From assembly GCF_000092105.1 (NCBI RefSeq), contig NC_014148.1:1530001-1562000 (forward strand): a DNA stretch of 32,000 nt, written 5' to 3'. Below the pieces are notes generated by a model. That model worked only from the letters and a program-made list of their open reading frames with translations, did no database searches and was not told where the DNA came from. Each line of letters starts with the position of its first letter. Within the stretch, counting starts at the first letter, position 1. This document shows, one piece after another, positions 12,573 to 32,000 of this stretch. Source of the stretch: Planctopirus limnophila DSM 3776. GTDB taxonomy: Bacteria; Planctomycetota; Planctomycetia; Planctomycetales; Planctomycetaceae. The translations under genes and the position numbers were made by a program.

Positions 12573-14219
12573 ATGTCCATGAATGATGTGACCACTCACC
12601 TGCTCGAAAAAGTTCGCCGACGGATGGCACTGGGCCAATGGGCTGAGCTTGCCATGCTCAATCTACTGGTGCTCACAGCTTCCATGACTGTACTCACCAT
12701 TGTGAATCGACTAACGGCATTTGCGCCGGAACAGATGATCATGTACGTCTGGCTGGCGATTGTCCCCGCAGCAGCACTACTGGCTGCCATTTTTCTGAAG
12801 CGGCCCACACTTTCGGAAGCGGCCCATCAGGTGGATCGTGCACTGGGCGAGAAAGATCTGTTTTTGACAGTATCTCGTCTGTCGTCATCCGTGGGAGAGT
12901 ATCAGCCTGTCGTCCTGGCTGTGGCCCATGCCAAAGCCCAATCCGTGGTGCCAGCCAAAGTGTCACCCTGGAATCCTTCACGAAGAATTCGTCCACTGCT
13001 CGGCTTAATTTTGCTGGCAGGCGGAATCCAATTCTTTCTTCCCCAGTGGGATCTCTTTGGCAATCGCGCACAGGCCGCCGTTATTGAGCAGCGTTCGGCT
13101 CAACTGAACCTCACTCGCAAGATGACAGAAGTTCGCAAGACCGAGCTCAAGCGGGCCCAGGAATCACGGGACACCACTCAAGACCAGCAGCTTGAGGAAA
13201 ATCTCAAGCTCGCATTCCAGAAAATGGAACCATCCCGCAAAGAAGAAAACCGCAAAGAATTGTTGAAGCAGCAGAAAGAGATCAGCCAGCAGTGGAAGGT
13301 CAAAGCCGCTTCGAAAAGTTCACCTTCGGCCAGTCGATCATCCCCCTCTGAAGAAGGTCAGAAATTTGGAGATGAAGAGACCGAGACCTTGAGGAAAAAG
13401 GCCAAAGAGGCGTTGCGCTCGGGCAATATGCAACCTCTCAAAGAGACGATGGAGCAAATTAAGGACGAACTGGAAAAGCTGGCCAAGACAGAAGACCCTG
13501 TCGAGCGGGCAGAGAAGCTGGAACAATTGAAAAAGCGGCTGGAAAATCTCGAAAAGCTCGCTCGGGAAGAGTTCGGTTCTGAGGAAATGGCCAAAGCCCT
13601 CGAACGAGCCCGGCAACAGGCTCAACTGGCCCAGAAAGATGGAGGAAATCCCAGCGAAGCCATGCAGGCTGCGATGGAATCGATGGAACTCTCTGAGATG
13701 GAACTCTCCCAGGCCATGGAGAATCTGAAGGACATGCAGAATCTGGAGAAAGCCCTTAAGGCAATTCAGGCTGCCAAAAAGCTCAACGAGCTTGACCCTC
13801 TCGATGGGGAAAAGTGCAAGCAGTGCCAGTCACTTTCTGATTATGAGAAGCTCTACAAGGAAATGCTGGCCAAATGCAATGGTCAAGGTGATGGACAAGG
13901 AAAAGGGAATGGTAATGGATTAGGAGGAGAAGGGATCGGCAGAGGTGGCAAAGCTCAGGAGGATGATTCGGTGGAAACATCCTTCGTTGATGAAAAGTCA
14001 CAATCTCAGGTCACTGCCGGTAAGATGCTCCTCTCGATCAAAACTCAAGGGTTGGGCGAAAAAGGTCAGGCGAGCGAAGATTATCGAAAAGCCGCCACGG
14101 CAGTGAAGCAGGGCGTTGCCGAAGCCATCCAGCAGGAGCAGATTCCCCCGGGTTATCATGAGTCGATCAAGTCCTACTTCGATCAGGTCGCTCCAGAAAA
14201 ATCGGGATCTGACAAGTAA
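12573..14219 (+). CDS. hypothetical membrane-anchored coiled-coil protein (E/K-rich)
   Basis: 548-aa ORF with three N-terminal hydrophobic segments. A long E/K/Q-rich region is predicted coiled coil by eye. A Gly-rich tract (GQGDGQGKGNGNGLGGEGIGRGG) follows, then a C-terminal IPPGYHESIKSYFDQV tail. Confidence 0.7.
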   Translation: MSMNDVTTHLLEKVRRRMALGQWAELAMLNLLVLTASMTVLTIVNRLTAFAPEQMIMYVWLAIVPAAALLAAIFLKRPTLSEAAHQVDRALGEKDLFLTVSRLSSSVGEYQPVVLAVAHAKAQSVVPAKVSPWNPSRRIRPLLGLILLAGGIQFFLPQWDLFGNRAQAAVIEQRSAQLNLTRKMTEVRKTELKRAQESRDTTQDQQLEENLKLAFQKMEPSRKEENRKELLKQQKEISQQWKVKAASKSSPSASRSSPSEEGQKFGDEETETLRKKAKEALRSGNMQPLKETMEQIKDELEKLAKTEDPVERAEKLEQLKKRLENLEKLAREEFGSEEMAKALERARQQAQLAQKDGGNPSEAMQAAMESMELSEMELSQAMENLKDMQNLEKALKAIQAAKKLNELDPLDGEKCKQCQSLSDYEKLYKEMLAKCNGQGDGQGKGNGNGLGGEGIGRGGKAQEDDSVETSFVDEKSQSQVTAGKMLLSIKTQGLGEKGQASEDYRKAATAVKQGVAEAIQQEQIPPGYHESIKSYFDQVAPEKSGSDK

Positions 14220-24100: not shown

Positions 24101-24334
24101 TCATCTCCGGTGCTCTGAGAAATTCGCTGCTCTGTATCGCATGCAAGTTAGCAAAGAGAGCCTATCAAATTTCGACTCATGGTTGGTCATCATTCTGGAG
24201 TCACTCTTAATCGATGATATTTGGGACTCGCGAAGATATTGCAACAGTTGAAAAGATGTCAGATCAGCGGGGGACATGTCCTGTGGCTCCGTGACTGAGT
24301 CGGTTGGCGGCTTCCCGCAGAACCTGTTCTTCAC
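24101..24334 (-). pseudogene. 5' stub of a nucleotidyltransferase gene (paralog of 29053-29640), truncated after about 32 codons
   Basis: The first 32 residues, MKNRFCGKPPTDSVTEPQDMSPADLTSFQLLQ, match MKNRFCGKLPTDSVTEPLNVSPADLTPFQLLQ of the intact gene. DNA homology stops at 24240. The rest of the 77-aa ORF is unrelated and runs up to the sulfatase start. Confidence 0.6.
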
Positions 24335-24497
24335 TCCAATCGGGATGTTGTTGGCGTATGGTGCCCCGAATCATCTCCCGGGCGGTTTCCCACATACGCA
24401 ATGCCTGAGCCAACCGTTCGGCAGAGGTCTTCTGACGAAGAATCTCCACCATTTCGGGTTCCAGAATTTCAATCACTGGTTGGCGAGGGGAAGCCAT
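24240..24497 (-). repeat. 258-bp direct repeat, copy A (partner 29603-29860)
   Basis: A hand alignment to 29603-29860 shows no indels and about 30 mismatches over 258 positions (about 88% identity). It covers the whole small gene plus the NTase 5' end. Confidence 0.85.
24264..24497 (-). CDS. 77-aa hypothetical protein, orphan paralog of the R-M-embedded small gene (putative antitoxin-like partner)
   Basis: MASPRQPVIEILEPEMVEILRQKTSAERLAQALRMWETAREMIRGTIRQQHPDWSEEQVLREAANRLSHGATGHVPR matches the 29627-29860 product at 69/77 residues. The reading frame is intact. Confidence 0.6.
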   Translation of the reverse strand: MASPRQPVIEILEPEMVEILRQKTSAERLAQALRMWETAREMIRGTIRQQHPDWSEEQVLREAANRLSHGATGHVPR

Positions 24498-25038: not shown

Positions 25039-25166
25039 TAGGCTGCTCATCAATCGATCAGCTTCACTGATCTGGTAGCTCTTAAAAGTGGTCAGGTGTT
25101 TTGGCCAAAGCGCATTCATTCGTGGTAACGCGTTTGGCAATAGATGAGAGAATCAAAGGGGCCAAA

Positions 25167-25841
25167 ATGTCGAATCAGTGGTTTGTCAAAATAGATGGAA
25201 AAGCTCAAGGGCCACTCAACGAATTGCAGATTCGTAAACTCATGAAGATGGGACGAATTGAACCTGATACTGAAGTGCGTCCAGAAAGTGGTGGTGCCTG
25301 GATGACTGCTGCTGAAGCAATCCAGATTCTGGATCAGGGAACCAATACCATTGATCCCATAGAAGCCTTGATTGACAACGTCCTGGGGACATCAACGCCA
25401 ACTCCGCCGACAACATTGTCGGATCAGGATTTCTCCCAGAACTCTCCCTCAGACTCGGAGACTCCTGCGAAGAAAGCTTCAGTCACTCCACCAATTCCAC
25501 AGGTTCCAACAGCATCTGTTCCACAACCAGTAAGAAATCAACTCCCAAAGTGGTCAGGGATTGCAAAAGATGACGTTCCCAAATACGGAGAACTGGAAAC
25601 CTACGGCTGGCTATCAGCAATCCTGGGAGTGTTGATCATGGTGAGTTCGATCATGATCAGCTTTGCAGAGGCTAACAACGAGCGTGCAACGCAAGGTTCA
25701 GTGTTTGTCATACTTCTGTTTGGGTTCCTCCAGGCTGTCGCATTCCTCACTGCTTCAGCACTGATCCGAGGATTTCGTCATGGTTTGCAGGATCTTCGCA
25801 AAATCACCATTTGCGCCGAACACACTGCCAAGCGTGCCTGA
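25167..25841 (+). CDS. GYF_2 (DUF4339) domain protein with C-terminal two-helix membrane anchor
   Basis: ATG 25167 is preceded by aaagggg. The N-terminus MSNQWFVKIDGKAQGPLNELQIRKLMKMGRIEPDTEVRPESGGAWMTAAE is typical of GYF_2. A P/T/S-rich linker follows, then two TM helices (WLSAILGVLIMVSSIMISFA, VFVILLFGFLQAVAFLTASALI). Confidence 0.72.
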   Translation: MSNQWFVKIDGKAQGPLNELQIRKLMKMGRIEPDTEVRPESGGAWMTAAEAIQILDQGTNTIDPIEALIDNVLGTSTPTPPTTLSDQDFSQNSPSDSETPAKKASVTPPIPQVPTASVPQPVRNQLPKWSGIAKDDVPKYGELETYGWLSAILGVLIMVSSIMISFAEANNERATQGSVFVILLFGFLQAVAFLTASALIRGFRHGLQDLRKITICAEHTAKRA

Positions 25842-25858
25842 AAATCCTGCCGTACATT

Positions 25859-28800
25859 TCAAAGTGTCGAATACAGGCTCAATCCTTCTCCCTGATAGCT
25901 GTCATAAACATGCTGGTAGACATTGTCACACTTCTGGCTGTAAAGCTCTGGTGTGAATGGCCTCGGAAGATCATCCAGCACTTCCTTTACAGTGGAGTAC
26001 ACGTCGGCTCGCGTTCTCTGCTTCTTTCGCCAATCCAGAACCAACTTGGCTTGCTTTAGAGATTGCAGTACCCGACGCGCCACCTGCTTTACTTGCTTCC
26101 GCTCGGCTGGTGTCAGGTCTAACTCGGGCCGCATGAGGATATCAAAAATGGCCAGTTCTTCCTCAGTCAGTTGCTCGGATACACCCCGCTTATCCTCTTC
26201 CTTTAAGTCTTTGGCAAACGCCATCAGCTTGGCAAAGAAAGCTTCAACATCCATTCCTTTGTTGTACTCTTCAATCAGCGTCTTGAACTTATCCAACAGC
26301 TCAATGCGGGATTTGTTGAGTTGAACCATTCTGGTGAGTTTCTGGCTCACCAATGCTTTCAGCTTTTCTGCTTCCGTATGTTTCCGGCCTTTACTGAAAT
26401 GAGCCTTCAACGCCTCAAAATCAACTTCGCTCAAATCAATCAATGAAGTCTCTTCTGTGGCATGGATCACATAGCCAACAGTGGAAATAGATTCATCCAG
26501 CAGTTCTCCCACTTGATCCAGCAAATCATCAATGTTGGCTTTGTCGGTCAGATTGCGGATTTTCTCTGCCAGAACCACCAGACACGTTTTGATTGCCGCA
26601 AACTCGTTGGCTCTGGGGTCAGGCAATATGGCTTTGTAAAGCTTCACCACCTGGGCCACATGAAACAAAAACTGCTTCTTCAGGTCATCATTGAGGATGA
26701 TTTTTTCAACAGCATCATCCACGGCTTCCACCACTTCGGCTTCCACCAGCAAATGAGCGGCCTGGGCCAGTTCCGCAGCTTTGTGAAAACTCTCCGGGTT
26801 GGCGTCAATCACTCTTTCCAAGCTCACGCCGCGTGAATCACAAAACGCTCTGGCTTCCGCAATGGCTTCGTGGAGAGCTTCCACCAGCATCGTCTTTTTC
26901 TCAATCGGGCATTCACCCTCCTGGGCCTGCCCTGATGCTGCTGTACCGAAAATGGCCAATGCTTTTTGCAGGTCACGAAAAACGCCCACATAATCCACAA
27001 TCAGACCGTTGGTTTTTTCTCCAAACACCCGATTGGCTCGGGCAATCGTCTGCATGAGTGTGTGATTCTTCATCGGCTTATCCAGGTAAACCGTAGAGAC
27101 ACACGGAGCATCAAAGCCCGTCAGCCACATGGCACAGACAAAAACCAGACGGAAAGGGTCTTTGGGTTCCCGGAACTTCTTTTCCAGATCCTCATTCACC
27201 ATGCGTGCCCGATGCACGGTGATATCAAAGCCTTTCTCCTGGAAGTATTGAATTTCGTTCTGCTGCTGAGAAATCACCACGGCCATATCCGTGGATTCCA
27301 TGTAAGCAATTTTCTCTTGTAATACAGGCTGACGGATTGAATCGGCCACCAGCAATTGAGACTTCAGATCTGCCAGAAACGCACCCCAGTATTTCTGGAC
27401 TTTCTCATACATCTTCACTGCGGTGAGCTTATCGACACAGATCACCATTCCCTTGCCGCCACCCTCACGTCCCAGAAAATGGGCCACAATGTCTTCCGCC
27501 ACTTTTTCCAGGCGGTCGTCTCGGGTAATCAGGTGATATTCACGGGCAAATTCCCGTTCCAGCAAATCTTCCTGCTCTTCATTGAGTTCAGCCGATTCAA
27601 TCAGAGCGTCCAGATCGTCCTGGAAGTTTTCATTGGCCAGTTGCAGTTCGGGAATCCGGTTTTCGTAAAACAACCGGACAGTGGCACCATCCTCCACGGA
27701 CTGGCGGAAGTTATAGATGGAAACATAATCCCCAAAGACTTCTTTGGTCTTCTCCTCACCAGCCATCAGCGGAGTTCCGGTGAACCCGATAAACGCCGCA
27801 TTCGGCAAGGCGTTCCGCATATTCAAAGCCAACGTGTCATATTGGGAGCGGTGAGCCTCATCAGTCATGACGATGATGTTGCTGCGGTCGGAAAGTTTCG
27901 GGTACGTCTGACCTTTCTTGGTGCCGAACTTTTGAATCAGGGTGAAGATAAACCGGTGATCTTCCTGAAGAAGTTGCTTCAGATGTTCTCCACTCTGGGC
28001 CTGACACTCTTCAGTGGCCACTCCCGTATTGCGGAAGTTGCGGTAAATCTGGCCATCCAGTTCCGTGCGGTCGGTAATGACCAGAAACGTCCAGTTGCCG
28101 GGAACTTTCCGAAGGACTTTCTGCGCAAAGAAAGCCATGGAATACGATTTGCCGCTTCCCTGAGTGTGCCAGAAAACCCCTAACCGTCCTTGATTGGATT
28201 GAATCTGGTTGAGAGCTGATGTGGCATTATTCACTCCCAGAAACTGATGATTCTTGGCAGTAATCTTATAGAGCTGACCTTTCGACTCATCAAAGAGGGT
28301 GAAGTTCTCCACGAGATCCAGAAACTTCGTTTTCTCACACGTTCCCCGAATCAATGTTTCCAGAGAGATAATCCCTTTCTCTCCTTCACTGTTGATCCTT
28401 TTCCAATCGGCAAAATGCTCCAACCCTGCCGTCAGACTGCCAATCTTGGCTTCACTCCCGTTGGAGAGGATCACCAGAGCGTTGTACCAGAAGAGCTGAG
28501 GAATGGTGGTTTTGTAGTCTTGAAGGTTGCCTGAAAAGGCCTGCTCCAGCCTGCCGTGAGTCTTCTTTAACTCAATGAAAAGTAGTGGCAGGCCATTCAC
28601 AAAGCCGATCAGGTCTGTCCGTCGTTTGTAAACTGTTCCCGAAATCCAGAACTGAGAGACCAGCAGAAAATCGTTGTTGGCGGGCTGATTCCAATCGATC
28701 ACCCGCACGGTTTCATCCACATCGTCTCCATTCTCATCGGCATAAGAGACTTTCACGCCCTCCTTGAGGAGTTTGTAAACGTCTCGGTTGGCCTGAGCAG

Positions 28801-29056
28801 GAGCGGCGGCACTGCGGTCTTTTCCCAGTTCCTCAATAGCCAGTTGAACGGCATCATCCGGCAGGCTGGGATTCAGTTTCTCTAATGCAGATTTCAGCCG
28901 GGGCCAGAGAATCACATCACTGGTGGTTTCCCGTCCCAGCGTGGCGTTGGCTCCCACTTTCTCGGCAAAGCCATTCACCGTGGCATAACCCAGTTCCTGA
29001 AACAGGGCTATCGTGGGCTGTTCAACCAGTGCATCTTCAGTGTAAGGATTGATCAT
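25859..29056 (-). CDS. hsdR: Type I restriction endonuclease subunit R
   Basis: 1065 aa. N-terminal HsdR_N-like region, helicase motif I WHTQGSGKSYS, motif II IVMTDEAHRSQ, later SF2 motifs (FTGTP, QTIARANR). The C-terminal DUF3387-like tail has LTEEELAIFDIL. The ATG overlaps the upstream stop (ATGA). Confidence 0.95.
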   Translation of the reverse strand: MINPYTEDALVEQPTIALFQELGYATVNGFAEKVGANATLGRETTSDVILWPRLKSALEKLNPSLPDDAVQLAIEELGKDRSAAAPAQANRDVYKLLKEGVKVSYADENGDDVDETVRVIDWNQPANNDFLLVSQFWISGTVYKRRTDLIGFVNGLPLLFIELKKTHGRLEQAFSGNLQDYKTTIPQLFWYNALVILSNGSEAKIGSLTAGLEHFADWKRINSEGEKGIISLETLIRGTCEKTKFLDLVENFTLFDESKGQLYKITAKNHQFLGVNNATSALNQIQSNQGRLGVFWHTQGSGKSYSMAFFAQKVLRKVPGNWTFLVITDRTELDGQIYRNFRNTGVATEECQAQSGEHLKQLLQEDHRFIFTLIQKFGTKKGQTYPKLSDRSNIIVMTDEAHRSQYDTLALNMRNALPNAAFIGFTGTPLMAGEEKTKEVFGDYVSIYNFRQSVEDGATVRLFYENRIPELQLANENFQDDLDALIESAELNEEQEDLLEREFAREYHLITRDDRLEKVAEDIVAHFLGREGGGKGMVICVDKLTAVKMYEKVQKYWGAFLADLKSQLLVADSIRQPVLQEKIAYMESTDMAVVISQQQNEIQYFQEKGFDITVHRARMVNEDLEKKFREPKDPFRLVFVCAMWLTGFDAPCVSTVYLDKPMKNHTLMQTIARANRVFGEKTNGLIVDYVGVFRDLQKALAIFGTAASGQAQEGECPIEKKTMLVEALHEAIAEARAFCDSRGVSLERVIDANPESFHKAAELAQAAHLLVEAEVVEAVDDAVEKIILNDDLKKQFLFHVAQVVKLYKAILPDPRANEFAAIKTCLVVLAEKIRNLTDKANIDDLLDQVGELLDESISTVGYVIHATEETSLIDLSEVDFEALKAHFSKGRKHTEAEKLKALVSQKLTRMVQLNKSRIELLDKFKTLIEEYNKGMDVEAFFAKLMAFAKDLKEEDKRGVSEQLTEEELAIFDILMRPELDLTPAERKQVKQVARRVLQSLKQAKLVLDWRKKQRTRADVYSTVKEVLDDLPRPFTPELYSQKCDNVYQHVYDSYQGEGLSLYSTL

Positions 29057-29640
29057 GGGGCTGCCTCATGGATTCTTTGAAGCACCAGTTTCCATTCTGT
29101 GGTCACTCCCAGAGTTTCAGCCCATTGTGTGAGATAATCCCGGTCAATGGCGTCTTTCTGGATCAGCAGGATGCTGGCAATATCCCGCAGATGTTTTTCG
29201 GAACCCCCCTCCTGGTAGTACCGCAACTTCATCAGGATGATATTTTCCGGAGAACCGAACCAGGCATCATAAAAGCCGGGATTGGACAGCCTTTGTCCCA
29301 GGCTGATGTCCAACTGGCTGAAAGGCGTCTCTTTCCGCTGGATAATATCCAGTTTGAGGCCTGACGGAACATGAATGATGTTGAACTGGTGGCGGGTACG
29401 AATGGCTTCTGCCACAGCCGTGGTCGAAAGATAGAAATCTGGAGACGGAAATTCCTGATCCAGTTCAGCAATGTGGCTTTCTTGCAGATCCACCAGAAAA
29501 TCAATGTCGTTCGTAAAGCGGGCCTCACTGTAAGCCATGCTGGCCATGGAACCGACGACCCGGTACGGCACTCCCAGCCGTTCAAAGCAGTTGGCAGTCT
29601 TCTGCAACAGTTGAAAAGGTGTCAGGTCAGCGGGGGACAC
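29053..29640 (-). CDS. Pol-beta-fold nucleotidyltransferase (NTase) embedded in the Type I R-M operon
   Basis: VVGSMASMAYSEARFTNDIDFLV fits hG[GS]-x13-DxD, with a third acidic residue in GLKLDII. The C-terminal helical region is ENIILMKLRYYQEGGSEKHLRDIASILL. I prefer GTG 29640 as the start because the paralogous stub has ATG at the same codon. The longest ORF starts at 29697. The stop overlaps the hsdR ATG. Confidence 0.72.
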   Translation of the reverse strand: MSPADLTPFQLLQKTANCFERLGVPYRVVGSMASMAYSEARFTNDIDFLVDLQESHIAELDQEFPSPDFYLSTTAVAEAIRTRHQFNIIHVPSGLKLDIIQRKETPFSQLDISLGQRLSNPGFYDAWFGSPENIILMKLRYYQEGGSEKHLRDIASILLIQKDAIDRDYLTQWAETLGVTTEWKLVLQRIHEAAP

Positions 29641-29860
29641 GTTCAGTGGCTCCGTGACTGAGTCGGTTGGCAGCTTCCCGCAGAACCTGTTCTTCACTCC
29701 AATCCGGATGTTGCTGACGTATCGTCCCCCGGATCATTTCCCGGGCGGTTTCCCACATCCGAAATGCCTGAGTCAACCGTTCGGCGGGAGTCTTCTGACG
29801 AAGAATCTCCACCATCACAGGTTCCAGAATTTCAATAACGGGTTGGCGTGGTGGCTGCAT
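29603..29860 (-). repeat. 258-bp direct repeat, copy B (partner 24240-24497)
   Basis: See copy A. It spans the small gene and the first codons of the NTase gene. Confidence 0.85.
29627..29860 (-). CDS. 77-aa hypothetical protein upstream of the NTase (putative antitoxin-like or regulatory partner)
   Basis: ATG 29860 lies 2 nt after the hsdS TAG stop and gives MQPPRQPVIEILEP..., colinear with the 24264-24497 paralog. The tracked ORF start at 29890 would overlap hsdS. The 3' end overlaps the NTase start by 14 nt. Confidence 0.65.
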   Translation of the reverse strand: MQPPRQPVIEILEPVMVEILRQKTPAERLTQAFRMWETAREMIRGTIRQQHPDWSEEQVLREAANRLSHGATERVPR

Positions 29861-29862
29861 AC

Positions 29863-31725
29863 CTACGATCCTGCCTGCAACGTGAACCACTTCTGACGCA
29901 CCATCTTTGAAATCGTGTCGTCCACATTCTCAACAGAGAAATTGTTTTTGTCTCGCTTCCCGGGCCAGTTGTCGATTCCAGTTTGGATATTCTGCCGCGT
30001 GATGGGTTGGCCAGCGTCGTGAAGATCACAGACGACCTTAAAAATGGTCATCCATTTCCCCAGGCCACTCTTCCCGAATTTGGAGAGATCCTGCACGAAC
30101 TCCGTCACAAGGGCTGCTTTCTCTCCCAGAAGAGATTTTGCGTATTCAACACCTTTTGTGAATTTCCGACCGGGAAGCAGAATTTTCCCCTGATTATCAA
30201 ATCGCAACCAATCAAAGCCAGCGGCGGCAAAGACCGCTTTATGGCGAAGTTCCTGTGACCAGGGGCCAGCCTTCTGGGCGACAAATTTTGAATTGATGGC
30301 ATGCCTGCGGAGATGTTTCAGGCCGAACATGTGCTTCTGAATGACAAACTCGTTGTTTGGTCTATCTGGTGCCAGATGAAGAAGCTCTTGCAGTAACAAG
30401 CACAGAATCGCCGCATCGTCTTTGTAAGGTGTACCTGTTTCGGCAGTCGGAGATGAAACAATTTGCGGCTTTGGCGGTTGGATAACTTTTTCTACTTCCG
30501 GCTGTTGAAAGGTCGGTTCATCAAAATCGATTTCCAGAGACTCAACATCCAGTTCACCGCTGATGAGTTTGGGAAGTAAGAGGTCACGGGTTTTGCGAAG
30601 GATTTTGTTTTTTCTAAGGATATTTTCAATGTGCTTTACTACGGGGGTTGTAAGAACGTCAAACTTCTGAATTAAAAATGGTTGCGGAAGAATAATTTCA
30701 AGATCCGCTATCAATTTTGTTGTCAGACTTCCACGAGAGCTACCGTCAGAGATCTGCCGGAACTGGTCATACCTTTGCACTAAATCAAAAAATAAAAAAC
30801 TATCAGTAGTTTGCTTACCATCAGCCGTTACAGCAATTGTTGACTGATTGATGTAGCAATCTAGGCAAAGCATCGACGTTTGGCCACGAGTCTTGCCTTG
30901 GCCCGCACTTGCAATAACAGTGCAGCCAGATCGTGCAAAACGGGTACTTGAATTAGTCACGCCCTCCTGTGTGATTTTCTTTTCAGTCTCTGTAATAAAG
31001 GTGTTTCCGGTTTCGCCGGATGATAGCCACGGAATATCACCATCCCAGTATTCATTGACATTAGTTCTTGGTGTCCCTCCGCTAGTAATTCTTTCGCAAA
31101 TTGAATCCAATCGTTTAACCTGCCAACCCTCAGGGATTTTGCCGAGTGGGGAATCGACGAGCAGGGTGTTTTCGTGGCCTGGGAAGCGGAAGTGGACGAA
31201 CCATTCCCGGTAAATGGCCTGGGCCATCTCTTCCAGAATGGCAATTCGCCGGGTGTTGTTCTCAATCAGATCATCATACGCCGAAAGAATCCCCGCAATT
31301 TTGCGTTGGACTGGCTCGGATGGAAATGTCAACTGTAAACCGTTCAAAATTGTTAAAGTCAAGAACTTGGTTGCGGCACCTGTGGATATACTTTGCAAAT
31401 GTTCAAGCAAGGGCCACATAGAGTAGTAAAGGAAACGCGTGTTGAGTCGCGTGCAATCTTGTGGCGTAACAACATACGTGCGTTGATACGCGTCAAATCG
31501 TCCGTGAAAATACTTTAGTGGATATATGCCGTTGGCATTGTTTCCGGCGAGTAACACACATTCTGTATCGAAGGCAAAAGTGTTTGTGCGAAGCGTCTCT
31601 TGCGAGCATGTAAAAAAGGGATATGCACCGTTTGATACAGCAGCATTTGAATTCAGCTTGCCCGTCTTGAAAGTCACTAGATTGCTAAGGGCGTCTGTCG
31701 TCCAGCCATTTGGAGGCATATTCAT
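29863..31725 (-). CDS. hsdS: Type I R-M specificity subunit with an extra C-terminal domain of about 220 aa
   Basis: Residues 1-400 form two target-recognition domains separated by the conserved helix [36 protein letters not shown], ending with the second helix [18 protein letters not shown]. Residues 401-620 are additional (see findings). The ATG overlaps the hsdM stop (ATGA). Confidence 0.9.
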
Positions 31726-32000
31726 AATGCTGCCTCCAACAATTTGACGACGTTAACGGCAATTCGTTCTTCCAACTCACGGGCTTCACTGTTGAGAACT
31801 TCCAGTTCTTCACTCAGTTCTTCCAGCCGTTCGGCAAACACAAAATCGTCCGGGGCTTTGTCGGCAACTCCCACATACCGGCCTGGGTTCAAACTCCAGC
31901 CCTGGGCTTCAATTTCCTGGAGTGTGGCGATTTTGCAGAGTCCAGCCACATCCGCATACTTCAGCTTCGGGAAGGTGGCTTTCAGGTCTGGTTCGACTCC
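31722..32000 (-). CDS. hsdM: Type I R-M DNA methyltransferase subunit, 3' end only (continues beyond the window)
   Basis: The C-terminal sequence ...[24 protein letters not shown]...[16 protein letters not shown] is typical of an HsdM C-terminus. The frame stays open to position 32000. Confidence 0.85.

Follow-up and report, generated by a model that had tools for sequence, protein, structure and literature searches.

A C-terminal domain resembling the DarT-binding half of DarG in the type I specificity subunit HsdS of Planctopirus limnophila

The window analysed here is a stretch of 32,000 nt from Planctopirus limnophila DSM 3776 (GCF_000092105.1; NC_014148.1, positions 1,530,001-1,562,000). 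It contains a type I restriction-modification (R-M) operon in which the specificity gene, hsdS, encodes a protein with an extra C-terminal domain (Table 1). The product is recognised as a type I HsdS by its two Methylase_S target recognition domains (TRDs) and by the position of the gene in an operon with hsdM upstream and hsdR. The Pfam family Methylase_S (PF01420) matches the protein with an E-value of 2.2e-27 in two stretches, both of which are located in the N-terminal two thirds. Only the end of hsdM lies in the window; a contig with an identical hsdS (L003) encodes the complete HsdM of 571 aa, with the HsdM_N and N6_Mtase domains. The crystallised HsdS from M. jannaschii (1yf2; 425 aa) can be aligned with residues 86-394 of the P. 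limnophila protein, where the alignment ends at "...LISGELDV". Since the M. jannaschii protein is by then exhausted to its residue 423, the canonical S subunit is finished by about residue 400, in agreement with an earlier sequence-only reading of the stretch. That reading also placed a P/Q-rich linker at about residues 401-432, followed by a globular region of about 190 aa, and both are recovered here: the peptides it quoted are present, the linker has low predicted local distance difference test (pLDDT) values in the predicted models, and the region behind it is modelled as a folded domain. The linker and the domain correspond to the last 660 nt of hsdS. In the relatives, the linker at the same place varies in length and composition, being for example K/T/S-rich in P0001.

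A chain of this kind could also arise if a missed stop codon or a frameshift had joined an ordinary hsdS to a downstream open reading frame (ORF), and the domain is indeed called as a separate ORF overlapping the end of hsdS in L033/L034. However, the identical 620-aa protein (ADG67055.1 / WP_013109486.1) is encoded in the finished 5.4-Mb genome of P. limnophila DSM 3776, and an identical hsdS recurs on independently assembled Logan contigs that derive from two or more sequencing runs. Because these agree, a missed stop or frameshift at about position 30525, where a check had been proposed, is excluded and the extension is genuine. Full-length fusions are moreover present in many unrelated organisms, and we give an error of sequencing or annotation practically no credence.

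An HMMER scan of 1.84 billion representative proteins identified 39 relatives of the extension, 17 of which had E-values of at most 1e-30. Most of these are HsdS proteins of 584-726 aa that carry the domain at the extreme C-terminus, behind TRDs that are unrelated to those of the HsdS in the window. Because the placement is the same in most of the 39 relatives, the extension is not a chance read-through, and C-terminal fusions to HsdS, for which a survey had been suggested, are recurrent. The family surfaced only in the exhaustive scan: a word-indexed search with the extension alone gave no match, a phmmer search against the PDB sequences was likewise empty, and the extension has no usable family in Pfam, PHROGs or NCBIfam. 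We aligned 26 members of the family (alignment A1) as a basis for the profile and structure work. The invariant residues in this alignment are K37 in a QK..[FY] helix, G60 and P61 in an AGPWS strand, L128 and T133 in a LERW.T motif, and W160, K163 and F169 in a WPGKR.K..F motif. With A1 as input, AlphaFold2 predicts the domain with a pLDDT of 94.3 and a predicted template modelling score (pTM) of 0.90, while the pLDDT for the single sequence of the extension is 43.

The nearest known relative of the domain is DarG's C-terminal domain, which binds, sequesters and neutralises the toxin DarT (PMC7003065). The PADLOC model for DarG matches the extension with an E-value of 2.4e-6. The aligned profile positions are 133-326 of 329, precisely the half outside the macrodomain, so that the alignment runs from the inter-domain linker of DarG through to its end. 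The same model matches 15 of the 26 family members (best E-value 6e-12), and the NCBIfam DarG model matches 17 of them (best 1e-10). Among the PDB sequences, the family profile best matches the M. tuberculosis DarG C-terminal domain (7yk3_B), with a collinear alignment but an E-value of 0.042. In a Foldseek search of the PDB with the AlphaFold model, 7yk3_B/D were the only significant matches (E-value 3e-4, template modelling (TM) score 0.65, 190 columns), and all other matches had E-values above 1. A comparison with hhalign of A1 and ten aligned DarG C-terminal domains (A3) gave a probability of 97.3% and an E-value of 1.7e-11 over 169 columns. As the E-values from hhalign are pairwise, we added column-shuffled controls, which scored 12.9 +/- 2.1 compared to 70.3 for the real alignments. 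By profile and predicted structure, the extra domain of HsdS is thus homologous to the DarT-sequestering domain of DarG, and the suggestion in the sequence-only reading that the extension is of an antitoxin type is supported by significant matches of both kinds.

The predicted fold is the same as in 7YK3 across the whole of the approximately 190 residues. The shared motifs are the QK..Y helix, the GP[YW]S strand, the L...T(H) motif and W..KRK...[FY], and in both proteins the domain is preceded by a flexible linker and placed behind another domain. However, the preceding domain is a macrodomain in DarG but HsdS, or a methyltransferase with a TRD, in the new family, and the sequences are only 15-17% identical. 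No Macro match was obtained for the P. limnophila HsdS in Pfam, its N-terminal part being HsdS. No darT gene is adjacent, as hsdS is followed in the operon by an Rv0078B-family antitoxin, a nucleotidyltransferase (NTase) and hsdR, although DUF4433 was not looked for elsewhere in the window. Nor was any DarT-family protein present among the annotated or scanned neighbours in the related loci. With neither a macrodomain nor an adjacent DarT, we reject the protein as a DarG orthologue. The domain scores 11.3-13.8 bits with the NCBIfam DarG equivalog NF048014, the cut-off of which is 250 bits. A DarT fragment (P0097) was rejected as a probe because it is chimeric.

The sequence-only reading had noted a resemblance by eye to the DUF4065/Panacea antitoxin domain, which holds as a remote relationship but not as membership of the Pfam family. 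None of the 26 family members, and not the domain in the window, matches PF13274 (DUF4065) at an E-value of 1 or below, and we therefore reject strict membership. NCBIfam SocA likewise matches none of the 26. The DarG C-terminal domains do not match PF13274 at this threshold either; one of them (P0074) has a weak match to NCBIfam SocA with an E-value of 0.064. As a Panacea reference we used orf149 of Salmonella phage Emek, which has the signature LKLQKLVYYAQ...HGPVVPELY. This phage appears in the plasmid table of the PanAT paper. The reference was aligned with nine diverse phage relatives from a tblastn search that are annotated as GepA or DUF4065 (A4, n=10). The hhalign comparison of A1 and A4 gave a probability of 90.2% and an E-value of 1.5e-6 over 136 columns, which is nearly the entire Panacea domain, with the QK..Y and GP[VW] motifs in register. 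The real score was 44.4, while shuffled controls scored 12.6 +/- 2.6 with a maximum of 20.6 and reversed controls scored 12. The corresponding comparison of the DarG C-terminal domain with A4 gave 76.7% and 2e-5.

The Panacea fold is described as a central helix with further helices around it and a small sheet whose beta-2 strand holds GPV (PMC8832971). In the AlphaFold model, the QK helix is followed by strands at 55-57 and 60-62, the second of which holds GPW, and then by helices. This order fits the Panacea fold as described; no Panacea structure is available in the PDB to superpose, and a search of BFVD with the model gave no significant match. The likeness extends to the QKLLY-type helix, to GP[VW] in the second strand of the small sheet and to an L...TH motif. 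The HsdS domain differs in being about 40 residues longer, with an extra W..K....F element at the C-terminal end, and in having a spacing between QK and GP that is 5 residues shorter. Furthermore, the Panacea proteins (PanA, SocA, GepA) are acidic and free-standing beside a toxin, whereas the HsdS domain is basic and fused to R-M subunits. These profile comparisons show that the HsdS domain is a remote homologue of Panacea/DUF4065 at the superfamily level and, together with the model, that it is closer to DarG. By profile and fold, the DarG C-terminal domain and Panacea would themselves be related, a link that was not found stated in the literature searched. It is hinted at by the NCBI name "Panacea domain-containing protein" for P0073, a 224-aa Nocardia protein that amounts to a DarG C-terminal domain lacking the macrodomain and does not match the current Pfam DUF4065 model. 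It follows from P0073 that free-standing proteins with this domain exist.

The genomic context of the family was surveyed at about 15 independent loci, many of which are short. A degenerate DNA pattern (GLERW.T-26 codons-WP.K) located two genome loci and ten metagenome loci but no viral contig; a single-protein search for genome loci found none, and tblastn against plasmids gave no match for the close subfamily. The domain is found in several architectures. In many cases it follows an HsdS with two TRDs, and in L009 and L017 it ends a single chain of about 1030 aa with HsdM_N, N6_Mtase and two Methylase_S domains. In the DISARM-like loci L001 and L012 it is placed between an MmeI_TRD and an MmeI-type tail. 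Free-standing genes of 160-340 aa also occur, in two settings. In DISARM-like loci (L006, L007, L030-L032) the domain gene separates an Eco57I/MmeI-type methylase from a 1700-aa DEAD/MZB helicase, and an SNF2 gene lies upstream. In the metagenomic loci L033/L034, the free-standing domain gene comes directly after hsdS. In a lineage of plasmids and integrative and conjugative elements (L035-L040), the gene order is hsdM, a half-S, a half-S fused to the domain, a 195-aa protein without annotation, and hsdR. Attachment to, or location beside, a module for DNA recognition or modification in an ATP-dependent restriction system is the one near-constant of the family, and the rare exceptions are L028, a fusion to an XRE helix-turn-helix (HTH) domain (P0029), and L041 (6094-7540), on the Tunicatimonas pelagia plasmid NZ_CP120684.1. 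In the last of these, a free-standing 268-aa member directly follows a 203-aa protein resembling an extracytoplasmic function (ECF) sigma factor, which hints that the domain can pair with partners outside R-M systems. The pair in L041 adjoins a multiubiquitin/ThiF/DUF6527 system and a helicase-methylase pair. The PADLOC models for Specificity_I (649 and 792 positions) and MTase_I (708 positions) hold the domain at their C-termini, and the fusions are therefore already in the databases, unannotated as an extra domain. A full-text literature search found no description of a fusion between HsdS and a DarG-type domain. Overall, the family is rare yet recurrent, being fused behind, or encoded right after, the DNA-recognition or modification module of ATP-dependent restriction-type systems.

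In charge, the family differs from both of its relatives. Its members are basic, with a median isoelectric point (pI) of 9.2 and a net charge of +4 (+8 for the member in the window), while the DarG C-terminal domains and the Panacea proteins are acidic, with a pI of about 5.5. To judge by its title, the 2023 paper of Deep and colleagues on the 7YK3 DarTG structure reportedly treats the neutralisation of DarT as mimicry of single-stranded DNA (ssDNA). Because the charges are opposed, it is unlikely that this mode of action carries over to the HsdS domain. The basic charge instead speaks for an accessory module that binds nucleic acids and resembles a winged helix in its C-terminal half, which would have kept the fold, lost the antitoxin function and now provide the TRD with more DNA affinity or read-out. 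Such a role would account for the position of the domain, always beside a TRD, and for the conserved and basic WPGKRxK motif, and it would agree with weak winged-helix matches below the thresholds, to MCM5_C, WH_Rok, LexA_DNA_bind, TFIIE_beta and linker histone in Pfam, and to the winged helices of MUS81 and KAT6A, F93 and MarR in structure. However, the winged-helix matches all fall short of significance, the acidic DarG likewise has the basic W..KRK motif, and the characterised homologues all bind proteins. Moreover, the standalone form beside the sigma-like factor and the fusion to XRE-HTH suggest partner binding. We consider nucleic-acid binding a serious alternative, albeit an improbable one.

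The genes next to the domain differ between the lineages. Relatives with domains that are 45-54% identical lack the Rv0078B/NTase cassette and are instead followed by purF, a DISARM-type helicase, a TIR gene, a nuclease or the 195-aa protein. In the Pirellulales loci L002, L013 and L014, the gene for HsdS and the domain is followed by purF, and in L007 and L032 the domain gene is followed directly by the helicase. The gap between the methylase-domain gene and the 1700-aa DEAD/MZB helicase in the DISARM-like loci holds variable inserts. In L012 (6438-7388) the gap contains a ThsB-type TIR gene and a PDC-M50A membrane protein, and in L001 (5545-6570) there is a 341-aa protein with only a faint match to DUF3800. 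In L033/L034 (3980-5800 and 7919-9055), the domain gene is followed by pP_pnuc_1, a nuclease of the pPIWI-associated type, and AAA ATPases; these loci also have a GmrSD type IV restriction gene between hsdM and hsdS and represent a dense composite defence island. A Schlafen/AlbA_2 protein is encoded downstream of the domain gene in L028. The protein of about 195 aa is translationally coupled between the fused hsdS and hsdR in L035 (1254-1841), L037 (5828-6418) and L040 (3213-3794), in a lineage borne on TraD/MobA elements. It matches nothing in Pfam, PADLOC or the PDB and may be an effector or a partner that the domain binds. Across the related loci examined, no adjacent toxin was conserved.

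The junction between hsdS and hsdR is a documented hot spot at which other systems become embedded. One of these is DarTG2, inserted in the order hsdS-darT-darG-hsdR (PMC12255303). DarTG2 thus shares with the new family a neighbourhood in a type I R-M operon. The extension could in that case be a functionless relic of a darT-darG cassette, left when a deletion joined hsdS in frame with darG's 3' half. Both the slot and the alignment, which begins in the inter-domain linker of DarG, would be as expected, but a relic does not suit a family of 39 clusters at 50% identity with invariant residues and at least four architectures, among them an insertion inside MmeI-type proteins and a free-standing gene. 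The confidently predicted fold, the DarG identity of no more than 15-17% and the opposite net charge also disagree with it. We therefore regard a present-day relic as very unlikely; a darTG deletion may nevertheless be the ancient origin of the family.

The sequence-only reading had proposed that the fused domain controls the adjacent NTase. In a model of this kind, the antitoxin-type domain would keep an effector embedded in the operon, here the MenT/AbiEii-like NTase, inactive on the R-M complex, and a phage that disables the complex would release it. PrrC, a tRNA-acting anticodon nuclease that is encoded between hsdS and hsdR and kept latent by the type Ic R-M complex EcoprrI, sets a conceptual precedent for the idea that an R-M complex can serve as an antitoxin. 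EcoprrI is not known to have a dedicated fused domain, and the P. limnophila NTase differs in having its own antitoxin. In support of such a guard, both the DarG C-terminal domain and Panacea bind a neighbouring toxin directly and so neutralise it, the cassette begins 2 nt past the hsdS stop codon, and DarTG2 sits in the same slot. Furthermore, the toxin-like gene right after the domain gene changes with the lineage, from the NTase in the window to ThsB-TIR and PDC-M50A, pP_pnuc, Schlafen/AlbA_2 and the 195-aa protein elsewhere, which echoes the many unrelated partners of the Panacea superfamily. The comparative context does not support control of the NTase, however. The NTase has an antitoxin of the Rv0078B family, with a second copy 5.4 kb away, the loci with closely related domains that continue into purF or the helicase have no cassette, and the junction attracts insertions whether or not the domain is there. 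In addition, the domain sequence is well conserved beside unrelated neighbours, which is not expected of a toxin-specific interface. We hold this explanation to be unlikely. In a more general form, to which we assign a still smaller likelihood, a Panacea/DarG domain borne by the specificity subunit would dock and silence whichever effector is embedded (a MenT-like NTase, TIR, nuclease or Schlafen-like protein) until a phage's anti-restriction factor displaces or disables the core of the R-M system and the effector is freed. If true, this would extend the single PrrC/EcoprrI example to a modular mechanism and explain why toxin cassettes, DarTG included, accumulate at the hsdS-hsdR junction.

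The reading that we favour, tentatively and at somewhat less than an even chance, is that the domain serves as a tethered regulator which binds a partner, this partner being the motor-nuclease of the same system. Those members of its superfamily that have been characterised bind toxic proteins and neutralise them, and by analogy with these antitoxin relatives the domain would act as a protein-binding module. A leash of about 30 residues would tie it to the methylase/specificity core, from where it could capture and restrain a toxic partner, which would be HsdR in P. limnophila and the DEAD/MZB helicase in the DISARM-like loci, such that restriction is licensed only within the modification complex. 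The Rv0078B/NTase pair would then be an independent passenger of the insertion hot spot. The motor-nuclease is the most parsimonious partner because it is the only toxic component seen or expected at most loci. Several observations weigh against this regulatory role. The family is basic, which complicates the guard model as well and gives nucleic-acid binding its force as an alternative. A different toxin-like gene is located directly downstream in several lineages, and this also fits a Panacea-like pairing with many toxins. A few members have partners outside R-M systems (the XRE-HTH fusion and the ECF-sigma-like neighbour), and hsdR was not seen in the short loci L002, L013 and L014, whose flanks do not reach far enough to show whether it is present.

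The domain adds a third, R-M-associated branch to the Panacea/DarG-C-terminal-domain superfamily of antitoxins and shows that, in type I and DISARM-like systems, a putative partner-binding domain of antitoxin type has repeatedly been gained by the subunits for specificity and modification. This suggests that the toxic motor-nuclease, or embedded abortive-infection effectors, are subject to a level of control that has not been recognised. Because the PADLOC Specificity_I and MTase_I hidden Markov models silently include the domain, a separate model would improve annotation. P. limnophila DSM 3776 is cultivable, so these ideas are directly testable there.

Table 1. Features of the hsdS region in the P. 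limnophila window, in window coordinates
Feature	Position	Strand	Description
hsdM 3' end	31722..32000	-	75-aa ORF fragment; exits the window, overlaps the hsdS start
hsdS ORF	29863..31725	-	620 aa, no internal stop
Canonical HsdS, residues 1-400	30526..31725	-	Two TRDs plus central and C-terminal conserved helices
P/Q-rich flexible linker, residues 401-432	30430..30525	-	Read from sequence
Extra domain, residues 433-620	29866..30429	-	Folded part ~433-617, ~190 aa; predicted DarG-C-terminal-domain-like, Panacea superfamily
Domain motif QK	30334-30339	-	Conserved
Domain motif GPW	30259-30267	-	Conserved
Domain residue T560	30046-30048	-	Conserved
Domain motif WPGK	29956-29967	-	Conserved
Domain residue F596	29938-29940	-	Conserved
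hsdS stop codon TAG	29863..29865	-	Product ends ...QAGS; ATG of the next gene 2 nt on
Rv0078B (MenA1)-family antitoxin gene	29627..29860	-	77 aa; Pfam PF18993, E 2.9e-19, above cut-off; tightly coupled to hsdS
NTase gene	29053..29697	-	214 aa; putative MenT/AbiEii-type toxin; overlaps the antitoxin end and the hsdR start
hsdR	25859..29056	-	1065 aa; identical P. limnophila protein annotated as type I restriction endonuclease subunit R
Second antitoxin copy and first ~32 NTase codons	24240..24488	-	Downstream of hsdR; direct repeat D1, 249 nt

The two genes that follow hsdS resemble MenAT1 (Rv0078B/Rv0078A), in that the first matches the Rv0078B antitoxin and the second, weakly, an AbiEii/MenT NTase. 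The NTase has an E-value of 7.9e-4 for Pfam AbiEii, just under the cut-off, and of 0.021 for DUF6036, and its top PDB match is a toxin of the AbiEii/AbiGii family (8an4) with a weak E-value of 0.2. The window pair differs from MenAT1 in that its toxin match does not reach the Pfam cut-off, and it is a neighbour of the fused domain and not a part of it. The direct repeat D1 has a spacing of 5363 nt and flanks hsdR, with two copies (24240-24488 and 29603-29851) that are 90% identical. The antitoxin ORF in the second copy (24264-24497) is intact, with 70 of its 77 residues identical to those of the first, and is an orphan beside a truncated toxin. Recombination between the repeats could delete hsdR and most of the NTase gene, and the repeats probably explain why short-read contigs end just past hsdS. 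Just downstream of hsdR, on the opposite strand (25101-25841, +), there is a gene whose 246-aa product carries a GYF_2 domain at the N-terminal end and membrane helices at the C-terminal end. The strong AT skew of 0.30 in the 13-14 kb bin, unrelated to the HsdS fusion, is due to a gene at 12573-14219 (+) for a K/E/Q-rich coiled-coil protein of 548 aa that has membrane helices at its N-terminus.

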